Source: Escherichia phage phiD2-2
Length of the DNA stretch: 49,337 nt
Direction: 5' to 3' (one strand)
Sequence record: OR861627.1
Part shown: piece after piece, positions 8,155-47,453 of the stretch
Layout: the number at the start of each line of letters is the position of its first letter
Position numbering within the stretch: position 1 is the stretch's first letter
The notes under the pieces: generated by a model
What the model was told of the DNA's origin: nothing
Databases searched by the model: none
Seen by the model: only the letters and a program-made list of their open reading frames with translations
Translations under genes and position numbers: made by a program

Positions 8155-8670
8155 ATGAGCAACACCAATCAGGAATTAAAAATCACCGATATGATTCGAC
8201 TAACCTGCGATGCAATGTATCGCGACAAAGGCATGAATGAGTTCTCTTTCGTGGCTGATGATATGGCCCTCGAGGCCGCGCGATTCTACTTCCGTGACCA
8301 GGAGGTAAGTGATAGCGATCTTGAATCTGCCGCTGCCGGATGGGTGGACCAGAACCAGGGTGAGGTGGAGAAGCGATTCAAGTCTGCTTTCATTACGCCA
8401 ATCATTACCCGGCACTTTTGCAAGTATGGCAAGGTGGCAAAGGTGAAGGTAGGCCGGAATGACGCTGCAATCACAATGATAACGGTTATCGTTACCGACG
8501 AAGAGATTCCCGTGAAGAAGCGCCGCAGCCGGAAAAAAGTTAGCCTGGCCGACTGCCTGGATTCGTTTGATGTTGATGTTGGCAAGCTATCGGATAGCGA
8601 GTTAATGGTTCGCGACGTGAATGAGATCGTACGCCAGATGAAAGCACATATCGAAAAGTGCGGGCTGTAA
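8155..8670 (+). CDS. hypothetical protein (171 aa), first rightward early gene
   Basis: Track ORF with AAGAGGG RBS; acidic patches. Confidence 0.6.
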   Translation: MSNTNQELKITDMIRLTCDAMYRDKGMNEFSFVADDMALEAARFYFRDQEVSDSDLESAAAGWVDQNQGEVEKRFKSAFITPIITRHFCKYGKVAKVKVGRNDAAITMITVIVTDEEIPVKKRRSRKKVSLADCLDSFDVDVGKLSDSELMVRDVNEIVRQMKAHIEKCGL

Positions 8671-8957: not shown

Positions 8958-9428
8958 ATGGCGACAATTACCGTATTTCTTGCTAAAGATGAGCTTGATG
9001 GCGAAATGTCATTCTTCGCGTTTGAGCATAAAACCGGCTCGCACTGGCACACTTACAGCCATTACACGGTTATCTCAATTGAAGCGTACGACGGCGAACT
9101 GCTCACTGATAAACTGAGTAATTTCATTGAAGCCGTTAAAGCTAGCGGCGGCTGCGAGTGGAAGGAAGATCACGAAGTTATGCGAATGTTTGAGATGGTC
9201 AATCCGGTTCGCCTTGAGTCGTTCGAGCTTGATGCTAATGTGACTATCAAGGTGAGAAAGTCGGGTGAGTTATTGCCAGGGATGCGTGTACTGACTGGTT
9301 ACTCTGGCCGTAAGGTGTGGCGCACTGTATCCAAGATTCGCCAGCGCTCGGCAACATGCTATAGCGTATTCTTTGATGATGGTTGGAATATGATGTCCGG
9401 TAGTGAGGTAAAGTATCTCACCAAATAG
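8958..9428 (+). CDS. hypothetical protein (156 aa)
   Basis: Track ORF with GGAGG RBS; TAG stop lies inside the downstream palindrome. Confidence 0.6.
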   Translation: MATITVFLAKDELDGEMSFFAFEHKTGSHWHTYSHYTVISIEAYDGELLTDKLSNFIEAVKASGGCEWKEDHEVMRMFEMVNPVRLESFELDANVTIKVRKSGELLPGMRVLTGYSGRKVWRTVSKIRQRSATCYSVFFDDGWNMMSGSEVKYLTK

Positions 9429-9506
9429 CACGAATTGTTAAAACCTGATCGGGGTATCTTGCTATAGTTACCCCATCGAAACGAGATACCAATCAGAGGA
9501 ATAACC
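9425..9506 (+). promoter_or_regulatory. gene-boundary cassette (upstream stop TAG inside palindrome)
   Basis: ATAGCACGAATTGTTAAAAC, hairpin GGGGTA/TACCCC enclosing TGcTATAGT, CATCGAAACGAG, CCAATCAGAGGAAT. Confidence 0.6.
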
Positions 9507-11587: not shown

Positions 11588-11736
11588 TGGCTGCGTGGGT
11601 CTTGATTATCTTGATGAGTACCGGTCCGGATCACGTATACATGGAAAGTCAGCAATCATGCAACAAGGCTCGGGAGGTGATTTCAGAGAACAAGCCGTTC
11701 GGATACGAAGTAAAAACGATGTGCGTTAAACGATAG
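11587..11736 (+). CDS. small membrane protein (about 49 aa)
   Basis: Hand-translated; ATG overlaps upstream TAA; hydrophobic N-terminus (AAWVLIILMSTG); TAG stop inside the 11733 palindrome. Confidence 0.35.
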   Translation: MAAWVLIILMSTGPDHVYMESQQSCNKAREVISENKPFGYEVKTMCVKR

Positions 11737-11816
11737 CACGAATTGCTAAACCTTCCGCAAGGCCATTTGATATAGTGGCCTTATTGAAGCAGAGCGACCA
11801 ATCAGAGGAATCGGCT
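11733..11816 (+). promoter_or_regulatory. gene-boundary cassette
   Basis: ATAGCACGAATTGCTAAAC, hairpin AAGGCCA/TGGCCTT enclosing TGaTATAGT, CCAATCAGAGGAAT. Confidence 0.6.
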
Positions 11817-13040: not shown

Positions 13041-13076
13041 ACGGGGAATCGGATCTGAACGGTTCCCCTTTCTTTT
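13041..13076 (+). terminator. rho-independent terminator
   Basis: Stem GGGGAA/TTCCCC then TTTCTTTT. Confidence 0.6.
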
Positions 13077-13088
13077 GGAGAAAACACT

Positions 13089-13199
13089 ATGCCAGACTTT
13101 TCTAACTGGAATAACGAGCCGCCATCATTTCAGGAGTTGCTATTTTGCCTCCTGGTCCTGACATTATCTCTTAAGGGTGTTTTATGGCTACTATCATAA
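13089..13199 (+). CDS. possible small hydrophobic peptide (about 36 aa)
   Basis: Hand-translated ORF after a terminator, GGAG RBS; overlaps start of next ORF. Confidence 0.25.
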   Translation: MPDFSNWNNEPPSFQELLFCLLVLTLSLKGVLWLLS

Positions 13200-13402
13200 C
13201 CGCAGAAGATGCGGCGCGTGACGCAGTGGAAGGAATGCGCCCAAATACCTCCAGAATCGCCCACTACTACAAGTTTGAGGTGTCGGCAGTGCAATTGGTC
13301 CACGAAATTTTAAGGCTCCCACAAGTCGATTCAGCGCGAGTAGTGACGTGCTTAAAAAATTATTTTTGCATCACTATTAAAACGAATAGCACGAATTGCT
13401 AA
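13184..13402 (+). CDS. hypothetical protein (72 aa)
   Basis: Track ORF; stop is the TAA inside the 13386 palindrome. Confidence 0.45.
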   Translation: MATIITAEDAARDAVEGMRPNTSRIAHYYKFEVSAVQLVHEILRLPQVDSARVVTCLKNYFCITIKTNSTNC

Positions 13403-13469
13403 AACTTGCTCAAGGGTATTTGATAGAATGCCCTTCGTTGAGTTAAGCAACCAATCAGAGGAATAAATC
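13386..13469 (+). promoter_or_regulatory. gene-boundary cassette
   Basis: ATAGCACGAATTGCTAAAAC, hairpin AGGGTA/TGCCCT enclosing TGaTAGAAT, CCAATCAGAGGAAT. Confidence 0.6.
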
Positions 13470-14191: not shown

Positions 14192-14762
14192 GAAAACAGC
14201 TATCATTTTAAACGGCGCACCTGGAGCGGGAAAAGACACTATCGGATGCATCCTTGCTGACACTTACGATCACGTAGCCTTGCGCAGCTTCAAAGCGCCA
14301 ATGTTTGAGATTGCCAGGGCAATCCTGGGTGAAGCTAACTACGAGTATTTCATGTTCTTGTATGAGGACCGTCGATATAAAGAAGAGCCAGCATCAATCC
14401 TGAACGGTAAAAGCCCGCGCCAGTTTATGATCTGGATTAGCGAGGAAGTCATCAAGCCGCAGTTCGGAAATCGCTTCTTCGGTATGCGAGCGGAAAGCAA
14501 GGTGAAAGAGTCGCACTCCCTTTCGGTATTTACTGATGGTGGATTCAAAGACGAAATCTTGCAGATGATTGAAGGTGATATCCAGGTCAAGCTATGTCGA
14601 ATACATCGCAACGGTTGCAGCTTTGATAACGACAGCCGCGACTATATCTATCTTGACGACATGATCGGGGTTAACGGTTATCAGGAATGTGACTTCTTTT
14701 CTGTCGAAGGTCATCCAGAAATTACCGCTCAGCACATAGCCGCCACGTTCATCAATAAATAG
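14190..14762 (+). CDS. deoxynucleoside monophosphate kinase-like P-loop kinase (T4 gp1-like)
   Basis: P-loop GAPGAGKDT, FKAPMFEIARAILG and LNGKSP motifs resemble T4 gene 1 dNMP kinase from memory; GGGAGA RBS. Confidence 0.55.
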   Translation: MKTAIILNGAPGAGKDTIGCILADTYDHVALRSFKAPMFEIARAILGEANYEYFMFLYEDRRYKEEPASILNGKSPRQFMIWISEEVIKPQFGNRFFGMRAESKVKESHSLSVFTDGGFKDEILQMIEGDIQVKLCRIHRNGCSFDNDSRDYIYLDDMIGVNGYQECDFFSVEGHPEITAQHIAATFINK

Positions 14763-14834
14763 CACGAATTGCTAAAACGTCGATGGGGTGATTTGATATA
14801 GTTACCTCATCGACAACGAAGAGAGAAAATCTAA
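14760..14834 (+). promoter_or_regulatory. gene-boundary cassette
   Basis: TAGCACGAATTGCTAAAAC, hairpin enclosing TGaTATAGT, CATCGACAACGAAGAGAG. Confidence 0.6.
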
Positions 14835-15400: not shown

Positions 15401-15614
15401 AGCGGAATGGAACGTGGTAAAGCGCGCGGCGAAGGAATTAAATAAATTCGTCAGTGGCATGAAGAAAGAAGATCGGAAAAACGACAAGATCATGATTGAC
15501 GTTATTTCTACTCACCACAAAAAGGTCGAATTACTCATCGATCGCTACAAATTTGTCTGGACTGCCGGGTATATTGCCGGGCGCGTAGGTAACAAAGAAG
15601 GGGATTACGAATAA
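15384..15614 (+). CDS. hypothetical protein (76 aa)
   Basis: Track ORF with GGAGAGG RBS. Confidence 0.5.
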   Translation: MFGLSEAEWNVVKRAAKELNKFVSGMKKEDRKNDKIMIDVISTHHKKVELLIDRYKFVWTAGYIAGRVGNKEGDYE

Positions 15615-16546: not shown

Positions 16547-16571
16547 AACCCGCTTCGGCGGGTTTTTTTAT
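16547..16571 (+). terminator. rho-independent terminator ahead of the packaging genes
   Basis: Stem CCCGC/GCGGG with TTCG loop then T7. Confidence 0.7.
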
Positions 16572-16622
16572 GCCTGCAATATGGTAAAATAGCACTAAAT
16601 GTTAAACAAAGAGGATGGATTT
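16572..16622 (+). promoter_or_regulatory. extended -10 (TGgTAAAAT) plus palindrome in the TerS leader
   Basis: After terminator: TGGTAAAAT then TAGCACTAAATGTTAAAC then AAGAGGA RBS. Confidence 0.45.
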
Positions 16623-18754: not shown

Positions 18755-18772
18755 TAAATGAGATATAATCAA

Positions 18773-18797
18773 GGCTGTCAATTGACGGCCTTTTTTA
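18773..18797 (+). terminator. rho-independent terminator between TerL and portal
   Basis: Stem GGCTGTCAA/TTGACGGCC then T6. Confidence 0.55.
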
Positions 18798-18808
18798 TTG
18801 GAGGAAAC

Positions 18809-20092
18809 ATGAAAATTGTTAAACATGATGGATATAACGATATCTTTAACGGCGGCGCGGACGGTTCACCAAAGCCATTTTTTATGTCAGACGCATCATA
18901 TCACGTAGGATCTTTCTATAACGATAACGCAACAGCGAAGCGAATTGTAGATGTGATCCCGGAAGAAATGGTGACGGCTGGATTTAAAATTTCAGGCGTT
19001 AAGGATGAAAAAGAGTTCAAATCTCTGTGGGATAGTTACAAAATTGATCCTAGCTTGGTTGATGCTCTTTGCTGGGCGCGCTTATACGGTGGGGCGGCTA
19101 TTGTAGCAATCATTAATGACAACAGAATGCTAACCAGTCCAGTTAAGCCTGGGGCTAAACTTGAAGGTGTGCGTGTTTACGATAGGTTCGCAATTACAAT
19201 CGAAAAAAGAGTAACCAATGCGCGATCGCCTCGCTATGGTGAGCCTGAGATCTATAAGGTGTCACCTGGTGACAATATTCAACCTTACTTAATCCACCAC
19301 ACAAGAATTTTCATTGCTGATGGTGAGAGAGTTACCCCTCAGATGAGGAAGCAGAATCAGGGGTGGGGTGCTTCAGTTTTGAATAAGTCACTGATTGATG
19401 CAATCTGCGACTACGACTATTGCGAATCACTTGCGACTCAGATCCTTCGGCGTAAGCAACAGGCGGTATGGAAGGTCAAAGGTCTTGCCGAAATGTGCGA
19501 TGATGACGATGCTCAGTATGCGGCGCGTCTGCGACTTGCTCAGGTTGATGATAACTCCGGCGTAGGCCGCGCGATCGGTATCGATGCTGAGACGGAAGAA
19601 TACGATGTTCTAAACTCTGATATCAGCGGAGTACCTGAGTTCTTATCAAGCAAGATGGATCGTATTGTTTCCCTTTCCGGGATTCATGAGATTATCATCA
19701 AAAATAAGAACGTAGGCGGCGTATCAGCGAGCCAAAACACGGCGCTTGAGACTTTCTATAAGTTGGTAGATCGTAAGCGTGAGGAAGATTACAGGCCGCT
19801 TCTTGAGTTCTTGCTGCCGTTCATTGTTGACGAGCAAGAGTGGTCGATCGAGTTCGAGCCTTTATCTGTTCCGAGCAAGAAAGAGGAATCAGAGATCACG
19901 AAGAATAACGTTGAGTCGGTTACGAAAGCTATCACTGAGCAAATCATCGATCTGGAAGAGGCTCGCGATACGTTGCGCTCTATCGCCCCTGAGTTTAAGC
20001 TAAAGGACGGTAATAACATCAACATTCGCGAACCGGAAGAGCCAACCGAACCGGAGCCGGGATTAGGGGAGAAGTTAGAAGATGAAAATTAA
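18809..20092 (+). CDS. portal protein
   Basis: About 427 aa gene after TerL, acidic C-terminus; track ORF trimmed to ATG (MKIVKHDG) with GGAGGAAA RBS. Confidence 0.7.
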   Translation: MKIVKHDGYNDIFNGGADGSPKPFFMSDASYHVGSFYNDNATAKRIVDVIPEEMVTAGFKISGVKDEKEFKSLWDSYKIDPSLVDALCWARLYGGAAIVAIINDNRMLTSPVKPGAKLEGVRVYDRFAITIEKRVTNARSPRYGEPEIYKVSPGDNIQPYLIHHTRIFIADGERVTPQMRKQNQGWGASVLNKSLIDAICDYDYCESLATQILRRKQQAVWKVKGLAEMCDDDDAQYAARLRLAQVDDNSGVGRAIGIDAETEEYDVLNSDISGVPEFLSSKMDRIVSLSGIHEIIIKNKNVGGVSASQNTALETFYKLVDRKREEDYRPLLEFLLPFIVDEQEWSIEFEPLSVPSKKEESEITKNNVESVTKAITEQIIDLEEARDTLRSIAPEFKLKDGNNINIREPEEPTEPEPGLGEKLEDEN

Positions 20093-22446: not shown

Positions 22447-22462
22447 TTAGCGTTTAATATGG

Positions 22463-22495
22463 GGACTATCTTTTTTTTGGATAGTCCTTTTTTTA
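22463..22495 (+). terminator. rho-independent terminator
   Basis: Stem GGACTATC/GGATAGTCC then T7. Confidence 0.65.
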
Positions 22496-22508
22496 TGGAG
22501 AAATCATT

Positions 22509-23276
22509 ATGGCTTACGAAAATTTGTTCTTGCGCCCCGCGTGTCCGGGAAATATTTCTGATACTTCAACCTACAATATTGATGGAGCTTGTGTGGCTCA
22601 AGGTGACATTGGGTTCGGCTCAGCGGTTCAGGTTGTAGGCATCGTTGACGGTGTAAAAGTTGTGGCGGCGCTTCCTGATGGTGGAACTCCTTACGGTATC
22701 GCTTTCCGTTCCCAATATGAACACCTGAGCGGTAAAATCCTTGACGGTGAAGTGTGCAACGTCGTTTCTCACGGTCGCGTATGGACTCTTACTTCTCTTG
22801 GTGAGGCTCCCAGCTTGTTCTCAAAGTTACAGTTTGGGTCTGGTGGAGTTGTTACTGGTGGATCTGGTTCCGCAGGTTGGACATTTGCGGGTGGCTTTGT
22901 TAAGCATGAAGATGGCTACATCATTGAGGTTCAGGTGAAACAAAATGCTTTCATCGCTCCACCGCCACCGCCCCCTGTCGTTCTTGTTGAATCTGCTACA
23001 ATCGCCACTGACAAGGAAAGCCCTCAACCAAACAATGTTACGATCCAGTGTGTAGCTAATGCTCTTCCGGATAATGCAACCGATAAGACTGGTAAATGGT
23101 CAATCGACGCTACCAATATCGCCACTGTCGATCCGGACTCAGGTCTTGTAACTCCTGTTGGTGGAGAGGTAGTCGGTGATTTCAATATTACCTGGACGGC
23201 TAACGATGCCAGCAAGACGACGGCAACTATTGCTTATCGCGTAGAAGCAGTGCCAACGCCAGAGGTTGATGCATAA
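22509..23276 (+). CDS. capsid-associated protein, paralog 2, with poly-Pro linker and C-terminal Ig-like domain
   Basis: N-terminal block paralogous to 21970-22446; APPPPPPVV linker; C-terminal beta-rich segment resembling a bacterial Ig-like (Big_2) fold. Confidence 0.45.
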   Translation: MAYENLFLRPACPGNISDTSTYNIDGACVAQGDIGFGSAVQVVGIVDGVKVVAALPDGGTPYGIAFRSQYEHLSGKILDGEVCNVVSHGRVWTLTSLGEAPSLFSKLQFGSGGVVTGGSGSAGWTFAGGFVKHEDGYIIEVQVKQNAFIAPPPPPPVVLVESATIATDKESPQPNNVTIQCVANALPDNATDKTGKWSIDATNIATVDPDSGLVTPVGGEVVGDFNITWTANDASKTTATIAYRVEAVPTPEVDA

Positions 23277-23296
23277 CATAAAAACACTTTGACGCT

Positions 23297-23313
23297 TTAA
23301 CAAAAAGTGCTAT
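23297..23313. repeat. boundary palindrome copy adjacent to a terminator
   Basis: TTTAACAAAAAGTGCTAT. Confidence 0.5.
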
Positions 23314-23318
23314 TATTG

Positions 23319-23348
23319 AAGCCGTGAACATAATCACGGCTTTTTTAT
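23319..23348 (+). terminator. rho-independent terminator ahead of the major capsid gene
   Basis: Stem AGCCGTGA/TCACGGCT then T6; a palindrome copy lies just upstream. Confidence 0.65.
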
Positions 23349-24327: not shown

Positions 24328-24334
24328 TATTATA

Positions 24335-24362
24335 GGGGCTAACTTAGTTAGTCCCTTTTTTA
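24335..24362 (+). terminator. rho-independent terminator after the major capsid gene
   Basis: Stem GGGCTAAC/GTTAGTCC then T6. Confidence 0.65.
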
Positions 24363-24376
24363 TTGGAGAAATCAAA

Positions 24377-24664
24377 ATGGCTAAAGAAAAAACTGTTGTT
24401 ATCGTAAACGTTGGTGTAGCTCTTCAGATGTTCCGTCTTGAAGATGGTTCCTTTGCTAAAGTTCTTCCAGATGAAGAGGTCACGCTTCCGGCGTCCGTTC
24501 TTGATTTGCCTGGCCTGCGTTGCTTAATTGCTCGCGAAGAAATCGAAGTTAAAGACGACAGTGCAACCAACCGCAAAATCCGCGCTGAAATGGCAAAGAT
24601 CACTAAGCCAGATCCGTGGGATAGCAAAAGCGTTAAAGAGCTTGAGGACGGCGGCGAATATTAA
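24377..24664 (+). CDS. hypothetical head-region protein (95 aa)
   Basis: Track ORF with GGAGAAA RBS between two terminators. Confidence 0.5.
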   Translation: MAKEKTVVIVNVGVALQMFRLEDGSFAKVLPDEEVTLPASVLDLPGLRCLIAREEIEVKDDSATNRKIRAEMAKITKPDPWDSKSVKELEDGGEY

Positions 24665-24670
24665 TCATCA

Positions 24671-24696
24671 AGGCGCTCATGTAGCGCCTTTTTTTA
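24671..24696 (+). terminator. rho-independent terminator
   Basis: Stem GGCGCT/AGCGCC then T7. Confidence 0.65.
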
Positions 24697-24707
24697 TGGG
24701 GGTAATT

Positions 24708-25118
24708 ATGAATCAAGAAACTTTAATTGCAGCTGTTGAGCAAATGCGAAAGCTGGTTCCGGCACTTCGTAAGGTTCCAGACGAAACGCTTTATGCGTGG
24801 GTAGAAATGGCTGAGCTTTTTGTATGCCAGAAGACCTTTAAAGACGCATACGTCAAAGCGATCGCTCTTTATGCATTACACCTTGCTTTCCTTGATGGGG
24901 CGCTAAAAGGTGAAGATGAGGATCTGGAATCGTACTCACGCCGCGTTACGTCATTCTCACTGAGCGGTGAATTTAGCCAGACTTTCGGAGAGGTTACGAA
25001 GAACCAGTCAGGGAACATGATGCTTTCTACGCCGTGGGGTAAGATGTTCGAACAGCTTAAAGCGAGACGCCGTGGTAGATTCGCATTAATGACAGGACTC
25101 CGTGGAGGATGCCACTAA
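24708..25118 (+). CDS. head-tail connector/adaptor protein (putative)
   Basis: Track ORF 24528..25118 trimmed to ATG (MNQETLIAAV) after terminator; call by size and position. Confidence 0.45.
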   Translation: MNQETLIAAVEQMRKLVPALRKVPDETLYAWVEMAELFVCQKTFKDAYVKAIALYALHLAFLDGALKGEDEDLESYSRRVTSFSLSGEFSQTFGEVTKNQSGNMMLSTPWGKMFEQLKARRRGRFALMTGLRGGCH

Positions 25119-26994: not shown

Positions 26995-27020
26995 AGGGGG
27001 CTTGCGCCCCCTTGTTCATT
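26995..27020 (+). terminator. rho-independent terminator after the major tail gene
   Basis: Stem GGGGGC/GCCCCC then T-rich run. Confidence 0.6.
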
Positions 27021-27056
27021 TCTGTAAAATCATCCTATCAACTTTATTCGATTAAC

Positions 27057-27096
27057 TTTTAACAAAAAGTGCTATCAACCAATCAGGAGAAACATC
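27057..27096 (+). promoter_or_regulatory. palindrome plus conserved leader upstream of the G chaperone
   Basis: TTTTAACAAAAAGTGCTAT then CAACCAATCAGGAGAAACATC then ATG. Confidence 0.45.
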
Positions 27097-27769: not shown

Positions 27770-30643
27770 ATGGTTGATAAGGTAGCAGGTCTGTCGCTTG
27801 ACGTTGATGTGTCAACAGTGCAGCGCGCCGTCAAGTCACTGAAAGAGTTTTCAAAGGCCAACGACCAGGCCGCTGATTCTATGGGTTCTTTAATCAATGA
27901 GTCAGAGGTTGCAAAACAGAAGGCCAAAGAACACGCTGAACAACTCAGGCGTCAGAGAAAAGAGTATGAGGCCGTGGAGAAGGCAATCGATCCTACAGTA
28001 TCAAAAATGGAAAGGTTGAAGATTGCATCTCAGCAGCTTGATAAACTCTGGCAGCAGGGAGTCGTTCCAGATGAGACATTTTTCCGTTTGGGTGAAATGC
28101 TGGATCTGCAAAACGCAAAACTTGCTCTCAGCCGGGCTATGCTTACGGAAGAAGGTCAGGCGGCATTGCAGGAAGCGAAAGCAAAAGAGCAGGCGGCAGC
28201 ACGAAGCAAGGCGTTCATGGATGCCCTGAATGGTCAAGTTAACGCGATCGGCAAGACTCATGCTGAATTGATGGAACTGAAAGCGGCTGAGCTTGGTTTA
28301 TCGAAAGAAGCAGCACCACTAATCGCAAAACTTAAAGATCAAGGCCGGGCTATGAATGCAGCAGGTATTAGCGCCGGGGAATACAGGCAGGCAATGCGAA
28401 TGCTTCCTGCACAGATTACCGACGTCGTTACATCTCTTGCATCCGGCATGCCAGTTTGGATGGTTGCCATCCAGCAAGGCGGTCAAATCAAGGACTCGTT
28501 CGGCGGGATCAGTAATACGTTTAAAGTGTTGCTGAGTTATATTAATCCAGTCACAGCAGGGGTTGGCGTTCTCGTTGGCTCGTTAGGTCTTCTGGCGAAA
28601 GCTGGTTATGACTCTTACAAGTCAATAACTGATATTCAGAATGCGCTTATTGAGACTGGCGGTTATGCAGGTGTTACGGCTGAAGAGCTTGATTCAGTGT
28701 CTAAAAAGATCGCACAGACAAGCAACTCAACCATTGGGAGTATTCGCGATATTGTAACGGAGTTGGCGAGTTCTGGTAAGTACACCCGCGAGCAGATCCA
28801 GAACATCACTAAGGCTACCGCAGAGTGGTCAGCGTCAACAGGAAAATCAGCAAGCCAAATTATTTCTGAGTTCGACAAAATCGCAAGCGATCCGGTAAAA
28901 GGCCTGAAGAAGTTAAACGAGCAATATAATTTCCTTGAAAAAGGGCAACTTACCTATATCGATACATTAAGCCGGACGAAAGGAGAAACTGAGGCAGTAT
29001 CAGAGGCTACCAAACTATTCGCAGACGTAATGGAAAAGCGAATGAAGTCGATCGCGGATAACGCTACTCCTCTGGAAAAGATGTGGAGCGATATTAAACA
29101 ATGGGCTTCGGACGCGTGGGGATGGGTTGGTGATCATACACTCGGGGCGCTAAACCTGATTGTCGACGTTGTTCAGGGTACAGTGATTCAGGTTAAAATG
29201 ATTCTTGCGAAGGGTGATGAGTACATCTCAAACTTTATCGCCTCAGCCATAAAGGCAACTCAGTCACTACCTGGAATGAGTGATTTCGGCGCTGATGTGC
29301 TGAAGGAGCAGGAGAACATCGTAAAAAGTTCTCGCGACAACTACGACCAGTTGGCTTCAGAGCTTGATGCTATTAACGCTCGCGTAGAAAAAGGCGAGAT
29401 GGGATACGTTGAAGCGATGAAGCAGCGTCGAACTCTTGAAAAGCAGTACAGTGAGGAAACTAGGGAGGCAATAAGGAAAGAAGCAGAAGAGATCGAGAAG
29501 CGAAACCGAGAAAGAAATAAGCAGTCGAAAATTGTACGCTCACCGACAGAGCAATTCGACAAGGAGTTAATTTCACTCAAGGCTCAACTTAAGGTATTGC
29601 AGGAGCATAAGGAGATCGGTCAAAAACTTTCCGCGCAGAGAAAGGCGCTGTTTACTACCGAGGCTACGATTGCTGTTCTTCGTGAAGCCAGCTCTAAGCG
29701 TCAGTTGTCTGCGGAAGAAAAAGCGTTGCTGGCAAGTCAGGAGAGAGTTATTGAGCTTGCGAAACAGAAGGCCGAGATTGGCGATCAGATTGTTAAGCAA
29801 CAACAGTTGAATGATCTTACCGATAAATCTCTGAAGTTTGTCAATGAGATGACGGCAGCTACAGAACAGCTAAACGCGTCTCGAGGGATGAGCACCCGAG
29901 AAATGGAAAGGCAAGCTGAGTTGGCTAAGATCACTACTGATTATATTAATGCAGGTGGCAGCGAAGGAGATGAAAAACTCCAGAACATGATCAAGGCACA
30001 AAATGATTACTATGCTGCGGAAGATGCCAAGCGTTCTGACTGGTTAGCAGGTGCTGAAAGTGCATTTGCAGATTACGGCGATTCTGCAATGGATATGTAC
30101 GGCAATGTGTATGATATCGCGTCAAGTTCACTTAACGGAATGAGTGACATGATGACCCAATTCCTGACTACAGGTAAGGCAAATTTTGAGGACTTTGCGA
30201 AAAACATCATTAGCATGATTATTAAGATGATTGCTCAAATGGTAATCTTCAATACGATCTCAGGCATGATGGGCGGTAAGACGTGGAGCTTTGCTGGAGG
30301 GGTGTCGCCTGGTGCTTCTGCGGTATCACAGGCAACTCCTACGCCTGCCGTCTCTGGTTTTAGGTCTTTATCTTCAGGCGTCGCTGTTACCTCGCTTGCT
30401 GCCGCTGCGGGTAGTGTTGCAACATCTGGATTTAACGCATCTAAATCCGCACCGAAGGCAGTGAACCAATCAGCAGGCGGGACGGTCGTTGATGTTAGGG
30501 GTATGGAGGTTAAAGTTGACAACGGTTCAGATCCGAGAGGAATTTCTCAGGGCGTAGAAATGATGTTCAAAAAAATGATTCGAGAGTCTTGTTCACAGGG
30601 CGGAGAGGTTTACAATTACATTCAGGAAAAAACAGGAGGCTAA
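27770..30643 (+). CDS. tail tape measure protein
   Basis: About 957 aa, coiled-coil-rich N-terminal two thirds, glycine/hydrophobic segment near C-terminus; track ORF trimmed to ATG (MVDKVAG) with AGGGGG RBS. Confidence 0.85.
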
Positions 30644-30645
30644 TA

Positions 30646-30999
30646 ATGGCGACACTTGACACTTTCAGTTGGTGTACGCAGGTTCAAGGGGGCGGCGGCT
30701 CCCTTACCACTACCAACAATGACAGATCCATACAGTTTGGAAACGGCCACATGCAGCTTGCATCTTCTGGATTTAACACCACGCGACGCGAGTATTCAGT
30801 TGTCTATGCTGGGGAAGATTTCATGGCTGTTTACGACTTCTGTGATTCTCACCGCATTAAACCTTTCGCATGGACGCCGCCGGACGGGAAGATCGGAATA
30901 TGGGTTGTTAAGCCTAACAGCCTGGGCGCGAAGCCAGTATCACGCGACGTGATGGAAATTAATGTCACGTTTATGGAGCAGTTTACATCTATGGAATAG
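30646..30999 (+). CDS. minor tail protein (lambda gpM-like)
   Basis: About 117 aa gene right after TMP; track ORF trimmed to MATLDTF with AGGAGG RBS. Confidence 0.55.
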   Translation: MATLDTFSWCTQVQGGGGSLTTTNNDRSIQFGNGHMQLASSGFNTTRREYSVVYAGEDFMAVYDFCDSHRIKPFAWTPPDGKIGIWVVKPNSLGAKPVSRDVMEINVTFMEQFTSME

Positions 31000-31010
31000 C
31001 ACTTCATGAC

Positions 31011-31037
31011 AAAAGCCCGCCTTGCGCGGGTTTTTTT
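31011..31037 (+). terminator. rho-independent terminator (repeated cassette, copy 1)
   Basis: CCCGC-CTTGC-GCGGG then T7; same stem as 33196-33224. Confidence 0.7.
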
Positions 31038-31040
31038 GTA

Positions 31041-31050
31041 GCTGTAGAAT
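31041..31050 (+). promoter_or_regulatory. extended -10 promoter element (TGTAGAAT) after repeated terminator
   Basis: TG-n-TAGAAT about 30 nt upstream of the gpL-like start. Confidence 0.4.
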
Positions 31051-31078
31051 GGTTGCAACTAAACAAGAGGAAAAGACA

Positions 31079-31861
31079 ATGAGCGAAAACAAAAAACTTT
31101 ATGATGAAGAAAGCGGGAAGAGCCTGTTTCACAACTGCCTTCAATCACTATACCCTGGAGAGATAATCACTCTGATTGAAGTTGATGGCAGCAAGTTCGG
31201 CGCTCAGGTGTACCGTTTCCACGGGGAAAATATCCAGTACACTCCAGAAGAAATCATGCAGGCACAGCAAACCGGAACGCTACCGCCGAAAGAAATCACC
31301 TTCCGTGGCGAGCAATACGGCGCGCGACCTTTCGGTATATCCGGGATCTCGTTCGACAGTTCCGGCAAGGCCACAAAGCCACAATTAACGGTGGCAAACA
31401 TCGATAGTCGCGTATCTGCGATGATTCGTGCATATAACGGACTAATGCAAGCTAAGGTGACTATCTGGATCACTCAAAAGGACTTAATTCAACATAACGG
31501 CTCAATCGCTGACGGAGCTTACCGAAAACTGGTATACTATATCGAACGCCCGAGCTATGTCGATAAGAGTGTCGCCAGGTTCGATCTAACGTCTCCTTAT
31601 GATATGGATGGAATCATGATACCGTCACGACTAACTCAAAGCGTTTGCTATTGGGCGCAGAGGGGATGGTATAAAACCGGGAAGGGGTGCGGATACAACG
31701 GGCAAAATGGTTACTTCGATAAAGACAATAATCCGGTAGACGATCCTTCGCTGGATTTTTGCCCGGGAACGGTAACGGCCTGCCGCCTGAGATTCGGCGC
31801 AAACAATGAATTGGATTTTGGCGGTTGCGCAGTCGCTTCACTACAGAGGAAAAATCAATGA
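31079..31861 (+). CDS. minor tail protein (lambda gpL-like)
   Basis: About 260 aa with C-terminal cysteine cluster (CPGTVTACRLRFG...GGCAV); track ORF trimmed to MSENKK. Confidence 0.6.
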   Translation: MSENKKLYDEESGKSLFHNCLQSLYPGEIITLIEVDGSKFGAQVYRFHGENIQYTPEEIMQAQQTGTLPPKEITFRGEQYGARPFGISGISFDSSGKATKPQLTVANIDSRVSAMIRAYNGLMQAKVTIWITQKDLIQHNGSIADGAYRKLVYYIERPSYVDKSVARFDLTSPYDMDGIMIPSRLTQSVCYWAQRGWYKTGKGCGYNGQNGYFDKDNNPVDDPSLDFCPGTVTACRLRFGANNELDFGGCAVASLQRKNQ

Positions 31862-32592
31862 TTAGTGCAAAAATTAAACTTGAAATTATGACTCACGCTC
31901 AAGAAGAATATCCTCGCGAATGCTGTGGGGTAGTCACCCAAAAGGGCCGCGTACAAAAATACCATCGCGTTGATAATGTACACCGCGATCCCGAGAATCA
32001 TTTCATGATGGATGCTGTACAATACGCTTGCATTGAGGACGATGCGGAATCAACAACAATAGCAATTGTTCACAGCCACACAGGAGACGGGGCTACAACT
32101 CTACCAAGCGCTCACGATACGTGCATGTGCAACGAGATGGAAGTTACCTGGATTATTGTTAGCGTGCCGGAAGGGGATATGCGATTTGTGAAGCCGGAGA
32201 AATTGCCTCTGATTGGTCGTCCGTGGTCATTAGGATCATTCGACTGTTACGGTCTTGTTATGGCGTGGCACAAAGAGCACGGCGTAGAATTGCGCGATCG
32301 CCGATTGAATTTTGAATGGTGGAAACCTGAGTACGGAATTAATCTCTATCAGGATTATTACAAGCAGGATGGCTTCGTTGAGATTCCAGATCAGAATAAT
32401 CCGTCATTCGGTGATATGGTAATCATGCAGATAGGGCAAAACGTTCCGGTATGGAACCATGCAGGGATTTACCTGGGAGATAATCAGATCTTGCATCATG
32501 CCTTCGGCAAGCTATCTCGTCGTGATATTTATTCCGGATGGTATCAGGATCATACTGTTTTAATCGTTCGCCATAAGGATCTTAAATTATGA
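31858..32592 (+). CDS. tail tip assembly protein (lambda gpK-like, JAB/MPN + NlpC/P60)
   Basis: HAQEEYPRECCGVV then HSH...SAHD (JAMM-type), followed by a Cys-His segment (FDCYGLV...H); track ORF trimmed to MISAKI. Confidence 0.7.
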   Translation: MISAKIKLEIMTHAQEEYPRECCGVVTQKGRVQKYHRVDNVHRDPENHFMMDAVQYACIEDDAESTTIAIVHSHTGDGATTLPSAHDTCMCNEMEVTWIIVSVPEGDMRFVKPEKLPLIGRPWSLGSFDCYGLVMAWHKEHGVELRDRRLNFEWWKPEYGINLYQDYYKQDGFVEIPDQNNPSFGDMVIMQIGQNVPVWNHAGIYLGDNQILHHAFGKLSRRDIYSGWYQDHTVLIVRHKDLKL

Positions 32593-33188
32593 ATGATGTA
32601 AAAGTAATTAAATTGTCAGGTTCACTTGGGAGACGCTTCGGCGTCTTTCACCGTTACGCTGTTGACTCTTACCCGGAAGCCATACGGGCGCTATCCAGTC
32701 AGGTGGACGGATTTAAAGAATACATGCAAAGCGAGGTAGGATCTCGTAGCAAGTTTTCAATATTTGTGGATGGCGTTAACGTGGGACACCATGAAGAGGA
32801 AAAATTCAAGTGCGCGAAAGAGATAAGAATCGTACCGATCCCTACTGGCTCTAAGACAGGAGGTCTATTTCAGGTTGTATTGGGCGCGGCAATAATGGTT
32901 GCAGCATTCTATACTGGCGGCGCGTCTCTGGCTTTAATGGGCACAATGTCCTCTTCTCTGTTTATGATGGGCGGCGCTATGGTGTTGGGTGGAGTGATGC
33001 AGATGATTTCACCGCAGCCGGGAGGCGCAAACTTTGAAGTTCAATCAAGCAAGAATAAACCTTCTTACGCGTTCGGCGGTGCTGTCAATACGACGGCGGC
33101 TGGATACCCTCTCCCGGTCCCGTATGGATATCGCGCCGGAGGTGGCGCAACTTTCTCAGCAGGTTCTTATGCCGAGGATATGAGTTAA
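32589..33188 (+). CDS. tail assembly protein (lambda gpI-like)
   Basis: 199 aa with Gly/Ala-rich hydrophobic C-terminal half; between the K-like and J-like genes. Confidence 0.55.
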   Translation: MNDVKVIKLSGSLGRRFGVFHRYAVDSYPEAIRALSSQVDGFKEYMQSEVGSRSKFSIFVDGVNVGHHEEEKFKCAKEIRIVPIPTGSKTGGLFQVVLGAAIMVAAFYTGGASLALMGTMSSSLFMMGGAMVLGGVMQMISPQPGGANFEVQSSKNKPSYAFGGAVNTTAAGYPLPVPYGYRAGGGATFSAGSYAEDMS

Positions 33189-33195
33189 AATTAAC

Positions 33196-33224
33196 CCGCC
33201 TTGCGCGGGTTTTTTTTCGCCTGT
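33196..33224 (+). terminator. rho-independent terminator (repeated cassette, copy 2)
   Basis: CCCGC-CTTGC-GCGGG then T8. Confidence 0.7.
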
Positions 33225-33230
33225 ATAATG
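33221..33230 (+). promoter_or_regulatory. extended -10 promoter element (TGTATAAT) after repeated terminator
   Basis: TG-n-TATAAT about 35 nt upstream of the gpJ-like start. Confidence 0.45.
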
Positions 33231-33243
33231 AGTCCACCGATAA

Positions 33244-33262
33244 ATAGCACAAAAAGGTAAAC
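33244..33262 (+). repeat. palindrome half-copy in the gpJ-like leader
   Basis: ATAGCACAAAAAGGTAAAC between the extended -10 and the ATG. Confidence 0.4.
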
Positions 33263-33265
33263 ATC

Positions 33266-36200
33266 ATGATTCAAAAAGTGATAAGTGGATCTAAAGGCGG
33301 CTCGCCTAAGCCTCATAATCCAGTTGAGATGGAAGACAATCTAATCTCAATCAACAAAATCAAGATCCTGTTAGCTGTATCTGATGGTGAAATTGACGAA
33401 ACATTCAGCCTGAAGCAGTTGATGTTTAACTCAGTCCCGGTGCAAAACGAGGATGGATCGTTCAACTTCGAAGGGGTAAAGGCTGAGTTCAGGCCGGGAA
33501 CTCAGACGCAGGAATACATCAAGGGCATGGAGGATAGTTCCAGCGAGGTAACTGTAAATCGTGAGGTTACTACCGATAACCCATACACGATCTCAGTGAC
33601 CAATAAAACACTATCGGCAATACGCATCAAAATGTTCATGCCTCGCGGCGTACGAATTGAAAGTAACGGTGATAAAAATGGCGTAAGAGTTGAGTATGAG
33701 GTGCAACAAGCTGTTGATGGCGGTTCGTTTGAGACTGTTCTTACTGACGTAATTGAAGGCAAAACAATGTCAGGTTACGACAGAAGTCGACGTGTAAACC
33801 TGCCTAGCTTTAACAACCAGGTAATATTCAGAGTTGTTCGAAAGACTCCAGACTCTAACGACTCTAACGTTGTTGATGCGATCCAGGTAAAGAGCTATGC
33901 CGAGGTGATTGATGCCAAATTCCGTTACCCTCTGACAGGTCTTCTTTTCGTCGAGTTCGACTCGAAGATGTTCCCAAACCAGTTACCTACGATCTCAATT
34001 CGTAAGCGCTGGAAGATTGTAAGCGTTCCGTCGAACTACGACCCAGAATCGCGAACATACAACGGCAATTGGGATGGCACTTTCAAAAAAGCATGGACGA
34101 ACAATCCGGCGTGGGTTCTTTATGACCTGATGATTAATCAGCGTTACGGCTTGGATCAGAAAGAGCTTGGTATCGCTGTCGATAAATGGGCGCTCTACGA
34201 GGCTGCGCAATATTGCGATCAGATGGTTCCTGATGGGAAGGGCGGGACGGAACCTCGATACCTTTGCGACGTGATAATCCAGTCTCAGACTGACGCTTAC
34301 AAGGTTATTCGAGATATTTGCTCAATCTTTCGAGGTATGAGCTTTTGGAATGGCGAAAGCATTTCGGTAATCATCGATAGGCCGCGTGAGCCTGCGTACA
34401 TCTTCACTAACGACAACGTGGTTAATGGTGACTTCTCCTACACGTTTGCAAGCGAAAAGAGCATGTACACGACGTGTAATGTGATGTTTGACGACGAGCA
34501 AAACATGTATCAGCAGGACGTTGAGCCAGTATTCGATCGTGAGGCTACTCTACGGTTCGGGAACAACGTAACGAGCATTACAGCGATCGGCTGCACACGT
34601 CGAAGCGAGGCCAACCGACGCGGGAGATGGATTCTGAAAACTAACCTCCGCAGCACTACGGTAAACTTCGCTACCGGACTTGAGGGTATGATTCCGACAA
34701 TCGGAGATGTTGTGGCAATAGCTGATAACTTCTGGTCAAGTAACTTGACGATGAACCTATCAGGGCGCTTGCTCGAAGTATCCGGTAGTCAGATTTTCTT
34801 GCCGCTCCGGGTGGATGCACGCGCGGGTGACTTTATTATCGTAAATAAGCCAGATGGCAAGCCCGTGAAGCGCACAATATCAAGTGTTAGTGCGGATGGT
34901 AAGACTATAGAGGTTAACATTGGCTTTGGCTTTCCTGTGAAGCCTAACACGGTATTCGCTATCGACCGCACCGACATTGCGTTACAGCAGTACGTCGTGA
35001 CAAAAATCGATAAGGGCGATGATGATGAGGAATTTACCTACAAAATAACGGCGGTGGAGTACGATCCTAACAAGTACGATGAGATTGATTACGGAGTTAA
35101 TATCGACGACCGACCGACGAGCATCGTTGAACCAGATCAGATCCCTAGACCGGAAAACGTGCAAGTGTCCTCAGAGTCACGAATCGTCCAGGGGATGAGC
35201 GTAGAAACGATGATTGTTAGCTGGGATAAAGTGCCGTACGCAGTTTTCTATGACGTCCAGTGGCGAAAGGATAACGGCAACTGGCAAAATGTACCGCAGA
35301 CAGCAAACAAAGAGGTATACGTTGAAGGTATTTACGCTGGCAACTATCAGGTTCGCGTTCGCTCCGTAGCTGGTTCCGGTACGACTTCAGGATGGTCAAA
35401 TGTCGTAGCTGCGACGCTGACGGGCAAACAAGGTGAGCCGGGTGGACCGATTAACCTTACAGCTACGGATGATGTTGTTTTTGGTATCCGTACAAAATGG
35501 GGGTTCTCTGATGGTTCTGGAGATACGGCCTATACAGAGTTGCAACAGTCACCAGATGGAACAGTGGATAACGCAAGTTTGCTTTCTTTGATTCCGTACC
35601 CGCAGCATGAGTATTATCACTCACCGATGCCTGGAGGGAATATTGTTTGGTATCGTGTAAGGACGGTTGATAGGATCGGTAACGTGTCTCAGTGGACTGA
35701 TTTTGTCAGAGGTATGGCATCAACAAACGTTGACGATATCATTGGGGAGATTTCTGTCGATATCGAAAACTCGCCGGGTTACGAGTGGCTTGTTGATAAC
35801 GCAACCGACAACGCGGCGCAGAACGCAGCTAACGCAGAGGCAGCAATAGAAAACGCGCTCGCCAATGACAAAGACGCGATCTACATGAAGAAGGAGAACG
35901 GAAAACGAAAAGCTGAGTACACGAAATCACTGAAACTTATTGCTGATGAGACGCAGGCGCGAGTGACGGCGATCGAGCAATTGAAGGCAAGTTTTGGCGA
36001 TCAGATTAGCGCTAGCAACAGCGAATTGCGTGAAGTTATCGCAACTGAGACTGGAGCGCTATCGCGTGAAATTGACCAACTCAGGGCAGAGATTGGTGAT
36101 GATATCCAGGCAAGTTTGACCGATATCAGAGAGGCTATAGCAAACGAGACTGAGGCGAGAACGCAAGCTGACTTGTCGTTAAGCGCGAGGCTTGGGAATA

Positions 36201-36685: not shown

Positions 36686-36690
36686 TATCA

Positions 36691-36718
36691 AGGGCATCGA
36701 GAGATGCTCTTTTCTTTT
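36691..36718 (+). terminator. rho-independent terminator after the J-like gene
   Basis: Stem GGGCATC/GATGCTC then TTTTCTTTT. Confidence 0.6.
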
Positions 36719-36730
36719 GGAGGATTTATT

Positions 36731-37036
36731 ATGGCGTACGGTATATCAACTTGGGACGCAAATGGCGTTTATAATAACTATGGAATTAAGCCTGTTACGG
36801 TTGTTGGTTGGAACTTTTTGTCAGCAGGACAGAATTCAGCATCGTTCAGCTATCAAGTTCCTCCTGGTATGCATGTGAACTACGTTATAAGCCTTGACAA
36901 TGGCGCCATTAGTGGGCCTGGCAGGAAAATTATTGCTAGCGGTAATACGATAACAGTAACGCCAACAAACTCACCCGGGCCAAACGTGTACCCATCATCA
37001 AACTGTTACTTAATAGCATATCTGGAGAATGATTAA
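36731..37036 (+). CDS. small tail-fibre-region protein (about 101 aa)
   Basis: Track ORF trimmed to MAYGISTW with GGAGGA RBS; N-terminus resembles the next gene (MSYGAF). Confidence 0.5.
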   Translation: MAYGISTWDANGVYNNYGIKPVTVVGWNFLSAGQNSASFSYQVPPGMHVNYVISLDNGAISGPGRKIIASGNTITVTPTNSPGPNVYPSSNCYLIAYLEND

Positions 37037-37725: not shown

Positions 37726-37750
37726 GCCCCTTTCGGGGCTTTTCTTTTAC
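37724..37750. terminator. bidirectional terminator between fibre-region gene and lipoprotein gene
   Basis: Stem AAGCCCC/GGGGCTT with TTTC loop then T-run. Confidence 0.65.
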
Positions 37751-37980
37751 ATCGAGCAATCGTGAGACTTGAAGTTATTCTCTGATACGTAATGGAATGA
37801 GAATGGATACCCAGCACGTAACAGCATCTCATCACCGCGCATCTTTGATCCAAAAACGGAAACCGAGTACTCTGCGTCACCTGATTCATAAATCGCAGTA
37901 CAAGTGCGCTCAGGCATCGATGAGCAACCAGTCAGGATGAATGCCGCAGCAATAATGGTGATTAATTTTTTCATTTGCAT
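37747..37980 (-). CDS. outer-membrane lipoprotein, Cor/Llp-like superinfection-exclusion candidate
   Basis: Convergent to the fibre genes; signal peptide with lipobox (MKKLITIIAAAFILTGCSS); short Cys-containing mature part; GAGGA RBS. Track start 38040 trimmed. Confidence 0.5.
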   Translation of the reverse strand: MQMKKLITIIAAAFILTGCSSMPERTCTAIYESGDAEYSVSVFGSKMRGDEMLLRAGYPFSFHYVSENNFKSHDCSM

Positions 37981-38040
37981 GTCCTCGTCGTTAGTGTGAT
38001 TGCATTGTATGTCGCATTTACTTTTATTGCAATAGCGCAA

Positions 38041-38502
38041 TTACAATTTTTTTTCGTGTAACGGGTGTCTATTTTTGTAACTGGAGATGGTGTTACAAAA
38101 TCTACCCAATCCGAACGCAGGTAGATATGATAAAAACTCTATATAATATATATAGATAGATAATATTTAATTTTAGCTTTATATATATAATTATTGTTGT
38201 GTAACAGTTGTCTATCGTGTAACTGGTGATTTGATTGATTCGTCAAATTTCTATCATATATGTTCAAAATTTAATCAATATGGATTCTACTTGTAGCTAT
38301 CCCTGTATTTCTAAGAAAAAGCGGTTACAAGTATTACACAGTAGACATCACATAAAAATAGACTTAAGCCATTGATTCCGTTAATGCTGGTTGTAACTTG
38401 AGCGATATAGACACGCTATTACACACCAATTACATGTATCCGATTGACTAAACGCTGTTAATGGCTATAATGGATTCATCGTAAACGAGGGAGATAAACG
38501 CA
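38041..38502. promoter_or_regulatory. AT-rich divergent control hub 2 with GTGTAAC-N-GTCTAT-N-GTAACTGG iterons
   Basis: Direct copies at 38055-38084 and 38197-38226, inverted copies near 38320-38350 and 38388-38426, TA-rich tract 38130-38200, consensus promoter at 38444-38471. Confidence 0.55.
38444..38471 (+). promoter_or_regulatory. sigma70-type promoter for the recombination operon
   Basis: TTGACT, 16-bp spacer, TATAAT; about 30 nt upstream of the exonuclease ATG. Confidence 0.65.
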
Positions 38503-39567: not shown

Positions 39568-39641
39568 ACGGCACAAATAGCTAAACAAATAATTAATGAG
39601 GTGTTATAATGCACCTCATACACCAATCAGGAGAAGTTAAG

Positions 39642-43376: not shown

Positions 43377-43397
43377 TGTTTTAACTAAAAATGCTAT
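43377..43397 (-). repeat. boundary palindrome copy containing the HTH gene stop
   Basis: Leftward reading ATAGCATTTTTAGTTAAAA with TAA stop inside; terminator follows. Confidence 0.5.
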
Positions 43398-43833
43398 TGG
43401 TCGTCCCGATATCTTCCTTCTTCACGACGCGCATAAATTTCTTGTTCTTGCATCGCTTCTCAAGGCACTTGCCGTTACCGTCAAACTTCAGGTCGAATCG
43501 CAACCATGCGGCACGAAATCCTTTACACCCCTGTCGTCGGTAAGCACGATGCGCAGCTTCAGCACCTTGCCACGAAATCATGTTGCGTTCTTTCCAGCCT
43601 TGCACCGTCTGATTGCTAACCTTTAGAGCTTTTGCGCAGGCCGCAGGGCCACCATAATATTCGATAAGCGCATCAAGTCGCGCTCGCAATCCGGCGCGTG
43701 TTTCTTCTTTATGAATATAGAAGCCGCAGCGCTGTCGAGGCTTTTTATCTTTACCGCGTCGTGTTCCGTTGTTACCATTGATGTGACGTTTATCGATTTC
43801 ACCAGTTGACTCTGCGATACGTTGAATACTCAT
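43381..43833 (-). CDS. putative DNA-binding regulator (Cro/YdaS-like HTH plus Cys-rich C-terminus)
   Basis: AACAKALKVSNQTVQGWKERNMIS looks like a Cro/CI-type HTH; C-terminal cysteines suggest zinc binding; AGGAG RBS abuts a palindrome copy. Confidence 0.4.
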   Translation of the reverse strand: MSIQRIAESTGEIDKRHINGNNGTRRGKDKKPRQRCGFYIHKEETRAGLRARLDALIEYYGGPAACAKALKVSNQTVQGWKERNMISWQGAEAAHRAYRRQGCKGFRAAWLRFDLKFDGNGKCLEKRCKNKKFMRVVKKEDIGTTNSIFS

Positions 43834-47139: not shown

Positions 47140-47387
47140 TGAACGAGAAAATGATTCCGGTTAAGTTAACTGATCAAGGTTTATGGCTGCTTTATCGAGC
47201 TACCTGCTGCGAAATCATGGAACAAAACGGATTGACGCAGGATGTTATTGGTTGCGATCTGTGGGAGTTCACTAGCTCTCTTGATATGTCTTTCGATGAG
47301 ATAAAAAATGAATACATAGAGAATTGGCCTTCAATCATACAGAGAGACGTAGAGGAACTTAAAGCTGATATGATCGTTCAGCACTAA
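47136..47387 (+). CDS. hypothetical protein (about 83 aa)
   Basis: Track ORF 47094..47387 trimmed to MMNEKM with GAGGAAA RBS. Confidence 0.5.
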   Translation: MMNEKMIPVKLTDQGLWLLYRATCCEIMEQNGLTQDVIGCDLWEFTSSLDMSFDEIKNEYIENWPSIIQRDVEELKADMIVQH

Positions 47388-47453
47388 TTGCTAAAACTAC
47401 CCGGCGAAAGTCGGGTATAGTTATTTCATCGAGACGAAATGAGGAATCAAAAG
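47379..47453 (+). promoter_or_regulatory. gene-boundary cassette
   Basis: CAGCACTAATTGCTAAAAC with TAA stop inside, hairpin CCCGGCgaaaGTCGGG, TATAGT, CATCGAGACGAAATGAGGAAT. Confidence 0.55.

Follow-up and report, generated by a model that had tools for sequence, protein, structure and literature searches.

Conserved terminators with a putative built-in promoter at two tail-tip junctions of the T1-like Escherichia phage phiD2-2

The M/L and I/J junctions and their terminators

We studied two short, similar sequence blocks in the tail genes of Escherichia phage phiD2-2 (sequence record OR861627.1), whose whole 49,337-nt stretch is referred to here as the window. The gene order matches that of coliphage T1, with which the window is collinear on one strand throughout, and sequence comparison of the region 30500-33700 gave 100% identity to Escherichia phage FCWL1 and ~94% identity to T1. 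On this comparison, the window is that of a T1-like coliphage (Tunavirus, Drexlerviridae). The two blocks lie in the M/L and I/J gaps of a lambda/N15-type tail-tip module, homologous to M-L-K-I-J. Block 1 (31011-31050) follows the M stop codon (30997-30999) and precedes the L start codon (ATG at 31079), and block 2 (33193-33229) likewise lies past the I stop codon (33186-33188) and ahead of the J start codon (ATG at 33266). The ribosome-binding site (RBS) AAGAGGA and the true ATG of the tail-tip protein L occupy 31065-31081 on the plus strand, and this ATG is equivalent to the L start in the T1 record. For comparison, both junctions were taken from 80 Drexlerviridae loci retrieved around homologs of L (100% to 65% protein identity).

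A 22-nt core (CCCGCCTTGCGCGGGTTTTTTT) is the same in both blocks, and across 36 nt their identity is 86%, with five of the 14 bases past the core differing. A repeat search of the window grouped them into one family (31016-31051 and 33195-33230, 86% identity) together with a stretch before TerS (16548-16583, 69%), and a pattern derived from the blocks matched at the two tail sites only, with 0 matches expected (100 shuffles). An earlier note on this DNA had described two almost identical blocks of ~40 bp in the tail module and a related one before TerS. The repeat search and the pattern match recovered both tail blocks, and the repeat family includes the TerS block; "almost identical" is true of the core but generous for the bases that follow, and the letters given for block 1 (AACCCGCC) actually read AAAAGCCCGCC. 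A 50-nt query of the I/J block found no match in 5,426 complete E. coli genomes, which argues that it is not a borrowed host terminator. Rfam gave nothing at gathering thresholds across the whole window, and only chance-level matches around the blocks.

Each block contains a hairpin with a run of T directly 3' of the stem. At M/L, the intrinsic terminator (31011-31037, plus strand) consists of the stem AAAAGCCCGC/GCGGGTTTTT, the loop CTTGC (31021-31025) and seven T (31031-31037), and the hairpin (31011-31035) folds at -13.7 kcal/mol (z -2.9). At I/J, the terminator (33193-33217, plus strand) has the stem AACCCGC/GCGGGTT, the same loop CTTGC and eight T (33210-33217), and the hairpin (33193-33211) folds at -12.8 kcal/mol (z -3.4). 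Both stems comprise five GC pairs and an A-U extension. The M/L and I/J terminators are orthologous to T1 terminators annotated at 22793-22816 and 24972-24994, respectively; the RefSeq and GenBank records of T1 (NC_005833 / AY216660) annotate both hairpins, the TerS hairpin and all other late-region hairpins as rho-independent terminators. The 2024 re-annotation of phage TLS lists the orthologous terminators T28, T42, T46 and T49 (PMC11447400), among which T46 and T49 are the counterparts of the two block hairpins, T49 being that of I/J.

The hairpin and the T-run are kept at nearly all of the 80 loci, and the T-run is conserved among lineages. The stems occur in compensatory variants (CCCGC/GCGGG, GCCGC/GCGGC, GCCCC/GGGGC, GCGCCC/GGGTGC and GGTCGCC/GGTGGCC). 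In 25 lineage representatives, 89.7% of the cells pair, and both sides change in six of the seven pairs; none of 500 shuffles equalled the observed value, and slid controls were 27-57% paired. This covariation indicates that the hairpin structure is under selection. Judged from the sequence, both hairpins are conserved intrinsic terminators and real stop signals, as annotated in T1 since 2004. The terminators had also been called strong; the intrinsic-terminator features are indeed conserved, but their strength is doubtful: at six other late junctions a promoter could not be fitted in, and in two lineages M/L is promoterless, so that much read-through has to be assumed (see below).

The near-identity of the two blocks may reflect a recent duplication or gene conversion (the "copy-and-paste" of the earlier note) in the T1 lineage, as opposed to shared design or orthologous descent, and we regard this as possible but somewhat improbable. 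An identical hairpin in both blocks was seen in the T1 group only, and TLS-like and other lineages have GCCGCC(a)TTGtGCGGC at M/L versus CCCGCC(g)TTGCGCGGG at I/J. In ungapped comparison, the M/L block of the window agrees with I/J-type cassettes of several lineages at 31-35 of 40 positions, versus 18-29 of 40 for other M/L blocks, and in gapped comparison its top five matches are all of the I/J type. However, the gapped margins are small (24-27 vs 19-22), and the elements are ~40 nt long and all on one template. Furthermore, a single inserted C and one compensating change convert the M/L stem of the type found in L047 into the T1 stem, and 5 of the 14 positions past the T-run differ within this genome. 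Much of the similarity can be ascribed to the shared design of GC stem, loop TTG, T-run and -10. The M/L block is slightly closer to the I/J-type cassettes, by margins that lend weak support to copying, and the data are suggestive of a conversion between M/L and I/J.

A putative sigma-70 promoter overlapping the terminators

Both terminators contain a -35-like hexamer in the hairpin loop and a -10-like hexamer past the T-run. The putative sigma-70 promoter at M/L (31022-31050, plus strand) comprises the -35 TTGCGC (31022-31027), a 17-nt spacer and the -10 TAGAAT (31045-31050), with a predicted start at ~31057; that at I/J (33201-33229, plus strand) comprises TTGCGC (33201-33206), 17 nt and TATAAT (33224-33229), with a predicted start at ~33236. 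Both were found by pattern match, and their geometry is conserved: the -35/-10 arrangement at M/L is kept in 22 lineage representatives, and the TAtAAT at I/J is near-invariant in 20, with variable flanking bases. The loop TTG (TTGCGC, TTGTGC or TTTACG) begins at loop position +1 or +2. Nearly all lineages keep 17 nt between this hexamer and the -10, and stems, spacers and leaders vary in sequence. Across lineages, the -10 agrees with TATAAT at 5-6 of 6 positions (TAGAAT at M/L, 5/6; TATAAT at I/J, 6/6). The pattern TTG-N20-TANAAT occurs nine times in the window compared to 2.7 expected, and three of these nine are hairpin-embedded cassettes. The sequence anatomy, the fold, the stem covariation and the conservation of the -35/-10 geometry were directly established.

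The conserved arrangement of a -35 in the loop, 17 nt and a -10 resembles a sigma-70 promoter embedded in the terminator, and not a canonical extended -10 promoter. The latter had been proposed earlier, and we considered the form TGnTATAAT for both blocks and rejected it. The TG abuts the hexamer in TGTATAAT and TGTAGAAT and is therefore out of register (cTGTATAAT, cTGTAGAAT); it is not conserved, and many lineages have CCGTATAAT.

We consider it probable, with moderate confidence, that both blocks combine a rho-independent terminator with an embedded host sigma-70 promoter. RNA polymerase coming from the upstream late genes would transcribe the GC hairpin and the U-run, and a fraction of it would stop at the end of M (31031-31037) or of I (33210-33217). 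As duplex DNA, the same sequence would act as a promoter, with the -35 TTG in the loop, the 3' arm and the T-run as the 17-nt spacer, and then the TAnAAT -10. New transcripts would begin ~20-25 nt beyond the termination point (near 31057 and 33236); starting there, they would be free of the hairpin, and their short leaders would contain the RBS of L or J. L-K-I and J would each be expressed from two additive sources, read-through and a locally set promoter, and this promoter would be shielded by the terminator from incoming polymerases. We infer that termination and initiation actually take place, and likewise their relative strengths. Re-initiation inside the late operon, as the earlier note put it, is plausible given the conserved terminators and a -10-like hexamer at a fixed place family-wide.

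Several points weigh against the embedded promoter. The -35 TTGCGC agrees with TTGACA at only 3 of 6 positions (TTG), its last three bases being fixed by the stem, and the constancy of the 17 nt could partly reflect the lengths of the arm and the T-run. In two lineages (L048 and L053), the M/L promoter is absent and the terminator is fused directly to the RBS, showing that the promoter is dispensable there. In a T1-like locus (L014), the I/J hairpin is lost and TATAAT is kept, and the -10 of the TerS copy is different and ambiguous. No promoter at these sites is called in either T1 record or in the TLS re-annotation, and our literature searches found no transcript mapping of T1-like phages.

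The same observations enter the strongest competing explanation, which we nevertheless hold to be unlikely: the blocks would be terminators (attenuators) only, the downstream genes would be expressed by read-through, possibly via antitermination, and TAnAAT would be an AT-rich leader kept for, e.g., mRNA stability or translation. At six late junctions the RBS follows the T-run too closely to admit a promoter, and the genes downstream of them must be expressed. The terminator is joined straight to the RBS between the decoration and Ig-decoration genes (22461-22511, plus strand), as found by the repeat search, and the same promoterless layout occurs at 13043-13090, 18771-18811, 24334-24379, 24670-24710 and 36690-36733. 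These terminator-RBS junctions lack any TAnAAT-like hexamer, and the one between the major capsid protein gene and gp31 is conserved in that form, with covarying stems. The fusion of T-run and RBS had been noticed before as common to several late junctions, and it is real, but the exact 15-mer TTTTTTATGGAGAAA occurs just once (22489). Allowing up to two mismatches adds 13069 and 24357, for a total of three matches versus 0.23 expected, and 18789, 24688 and 36708 are looser variants of one layout (hairpin, T-run, GGAG, then ATG). The terminator-only explanation is also consistent with the promoterless M/L junctions of L048 and L053, with the lambda I/J gap, which has a terminator-like hairpin and an RBS and no -10, and with the curated T1 and TLS annotations, which have no promoter here. 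However, it does not account for a near-invariant hexamer at a fixed distance of 17 nt from the loop TTG in diverged lineages and at three separate junctions. In addition, the hexamer-free junctions place the RBS on the T-run, so that the extra 30-45 nt of the blocks seem to be there for the hexamer and the leader. The six junctions and the two promoterless lineages indicate that the terminators are leaky or overridden. The embedded promoters would then add to read-through and not replace it.

Very improbably, the hairpins could serve mainly as RNA-processing or 3'-end-stabilising elements or as DNA-level boundaries of recombination modules, as might be suggested by the clustering of insertions at the junctions (an extra open reading frame (ORF) at M/L in L051; 569 nt at I/J in L041 and L042), by the position of the I/J junction directly before the host-range gene J and by the hairpins without U-runs at the early promoters of this phage, but the 7-8 T directly after each hairpin are conserved, define intrinsic terminators and are not needed for stabilisation or recombination, and no Rfam family matches.

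The cassettes appear to be hot spots for insertions and deletions or mobile genes. The extra ORF in L051 sits after the M terminator, and in L016 a deletion at M/L takes out the T-run and the start of L.

The start of L is annotated differently in the FCWL1 record (GenBank PP558327; L003), at 31049, an ATG within the -10. Compared with the whole window, itself collinear with T1, this record matches only piecewise: each minus-strand gene is flipped in place, so that all 78 coding sequences are on the plus strand. The deposit appears to be corrupted, and its start of TerS is 16599, rather than 16623.

Related cassettes, the ATAGCAC repeat and the early promoters

The cassette is one of at least four predicted in the late region, at TerS, tube/chaperone, M/L and I/J. 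The related cassette before TerS (16547-16606, plus strand) includes a hairpin (16547-16564), a T-run (16563-16569), the conserved TGGTAAAAT (16582-16590) and an ATAGCAC repeat (16589-16606), as identified by its fold, its conservation and the T1 terminator at 8322-8344. It is the only one among these cassettes with a proper extended -10 form, TGnTAAAAT. The sequence TGCAATAT, suggested earlier as the TerS -10, was set aside, since it varies in relatives (CAATAT, TAATAT, GAGTAT, AAATAT) and TGnTAAAAT, 7 nt further on, is invariant. The hairpin of TLS terminator T28 (cccgcccttgcgcggg) is of the I/J sequence type; from its position in the terminator list, we take T28 to lie before the terminase genes.

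The fourth cassette, which is absent from the earlier note, was found by pattern match in the gap between the tube and chaperone genes (26995-27030, plus strand). It has the hairpin GGGGGC/GCCCCC (26995-27012), the -35 TTGCGC (27002-27007), a 17-nt spacer and the -10 TAAAAT (27025-27030), and TTGCGC-17-TAnAAT is kept across divergent lineages. A reverse copy of the ATAGCAC repeat lies downstream of it (27058-27075, minus strand), with a minus-strand TGnTAGGAT 20 nt after the repeat. Relatives have TGGTAGAGT at equal spacing for this reverse-strand hexamer (27032-27075, minus strand). This suggests a putative conserved antisense promoter opposing the sense -10 at 27025-27030.

In front of the major capsid gene, a predicted promoter and a terminator follow one another (23289-23343, plus strand), and the arrangement is conserved family-wide. 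The promoter consists of an A-tract, TTGACG, 16 nt and TGcTATTAT (TTGACG-16-TATTAT, 23289-23316), and its spacer and -10 correspond exactly to the ATAGCAC repeat in reverse orientation. A hairpin (23318-23343) with a T-run starts 2 nt past the -10. The predicted start falls within the 5' arm of this hairpin, and the promoter's own transcripts would thus escape termination.

The ATAGCAC repeat is known as a 21-nt direct repeat, ATAGCAC-N3-TTGnTAAAA, in TLS, T1, Rtp and Rogue1, for which the authors give no function (PMC11447400). The window contains ~26 good copies of ATAGCAC-N3-TTGnTAAA, each oriented to the downstream gene (e.g. 9425-9473, 11733-11780, 13386-13433, 14759-14802 and 47378-47421). 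One copy lies in the leader of J (33244-33261, plus strand; ~+9 to +26) and overlaps the J RBS; it is conserved in T1, in TLS (DR8) and in several lineages, and lost in the L054-L083 group. This copy matches aaATAGCACnnnTTGnTAAAA in the direction of the downstream gene with two mismatches, and the copy in the TerS leader (16589-16606) does so with one. Both belong to the same family as the TLS direct repeat, which is distinct from the terminator-promoter block. A weak copy at 30996-31013 (two mismatches) was considered as part of block 1 and rejected; it is not conserved, and T1 has TAACGCCATATAACAAAAG there.

At the early promoters, exactly 20 nt separate the end of the repeat from a TATAGT-like -10 in 17 of 21 cases, which puts TTGnTA 22 nt, and not 17 nt, away from the -10. 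As an imperfect palindrome (TAGCA-N5-TGyTA), the repeat has its centre at about -42 in these promoters. A position near -42 is the classic site of a class II activator. The rigid spacing to the -10 and the palindrome are offered as leads that would add to the published description of the TLS repeat. A strong inverted repeat without a U-run is found in the 40 nt after the ATAGCAC repeat at 18 of 20 early promoters (mean z -3.8), and these hairpins either end at the -10 (CCCGnn..nnCGGG followed by TATAGT) or enclose it in the loop (AAGGCCatttgaTATAGTGGCCTT). Examples are located at 47-68, 9450-9473, 11757-11780, 14778-14813 and 39596-39619. The late promoters have the repeat across their core or past it: it covers the -10 and start at TerS and the spacer and -10 at the capsid gene, sits in the leader of J, and is found downstream at tube/chaperone.

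A homolog of T1 ST23 (43381-43833, minus strand) lies behind a near-consensus sigma-70 promoter, TTGAAT-17-TATAAT (43913-43885). It belongs to PHROG 2856 ("transcriptional regulator"), and comparison with Pfam and PDB sequences gave just a sub-threshold match to a Cro-like (Cro/YdaS) helix-turn-helix. As a lead, we propose it as a candidate binder of the ATAGCAC palindrome. The host factors IHF and Lrp were also considered for this role, on the basis of their consensus sequences, but nothing here rests on them.

A broader scheme can be imagined, which we rate as doubtful. T1-like phages would fuse every promoter to a hairpin, such that transcripts from upstream contain the hairpin and those of the promoter itself begin within or past it; acting at the palindromic operator, which is at -42 in the early promoters and over or past the core in the late ones, one regulator, perhaps the ST23 homolog, would switch the early promoters on and the late ones off, and the close overlap of terminator and promoter may allow terminated polymerase to re-initiate without leaving the DNA. 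Re-initiation by terminated polymerase has been seen in single-molecule work (PMC6978380, PMC10372574).

Past the late region, a non-coding gap of 777 nt (37726-38502) is very AT-rich and has many short repeats (GTGTAAC..GTTGTCTAT motifs). It closes with a near-consensus promoter, TTGACT-16-TATAAT (38444-38471), ahead of the recombination genes, and contains a small minus-strand ORF that may match cor, which T1 has at the end of the late region. The gap could be a replication origin or a regulatory region.

Comparison with known systems and implications for the late region

T1 itself, with a ~94% identical genome, has orthologous elements at the same junctions with the same hairpins. Unlike the present interpretation, its records annotate terminators at both sites and no promoter. 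According to the TLS re-annotation, Roberts et al. (2004) pictured the late region of T1 as "transcriptons", terminator-flanked modules containing RpoD promoters (PMC11447400). The TLS re-annotation itself gives three sigma-70 promoters only, and transcriptons could not be confirmed for TLS (PMC11447400). None of the sources read here states an overlap in which the -35 lies in the hairpin loop.

Phage lambda has the homologous genes M, L, K, I and J in the same order. Its I/J gap contains a terminator-like hairpin (AAACCGCC TGCG GGCGGTTTT), a T-rich stretch and an RBS (L202 5962-5992, corresponding to lambda 15461-15491), indicating that a hairpin at this junction predates the split of the lambda-like and T1-like tail modules. 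However, M and L abut in lambda without a gap, and its I/J gap has no -10-like hexamer. The late genes of lambda are transcribed from a single promoter, pR', by a Q-modified, terminator-resistant polymerase; T1 is not known to have a Q-like system. In the class III region of phage T7, a leaky terminator (T-phi) follows gene 10, after the abundant structural genes, and internal promoters (such as phi13 and phi17) before tail and tail-fibre genes top up the distal tail genes. The T1-like arrangement would resemble this in having leaky terminators and internal promoters. T7, however, uses its own RNA polymerase and promoters and keeps terminator and promoters separate, whereas here host sigma-70 signals would overlap the terminator.

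The terminators were already known from T1 and TLS, and the conserved embedded promoter is a plausible, putative addition, one tidy design detail. Its elements are standard bacterial signals, the ordinary punctuation of phage genes, and the general significance is modest. The geometry of a -35 in the loop, 17 nt and a -10 nevertheless gives exact positions that can be tested, for a transcripton idea that had been left open for TLS. The coexistence of the cassettes with promoterless terminator-RBS junctions suggests that the terminators act as attenuators and not as full stops. Should the embedded promoters prove real, the late genes of T1-like phages would be organised as a series of attenuators with local restart points and not as a single long operon. 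The restart points would then set the output of each tail-tip protein, which would bear on phage engineering and on the annotation of many relatives.

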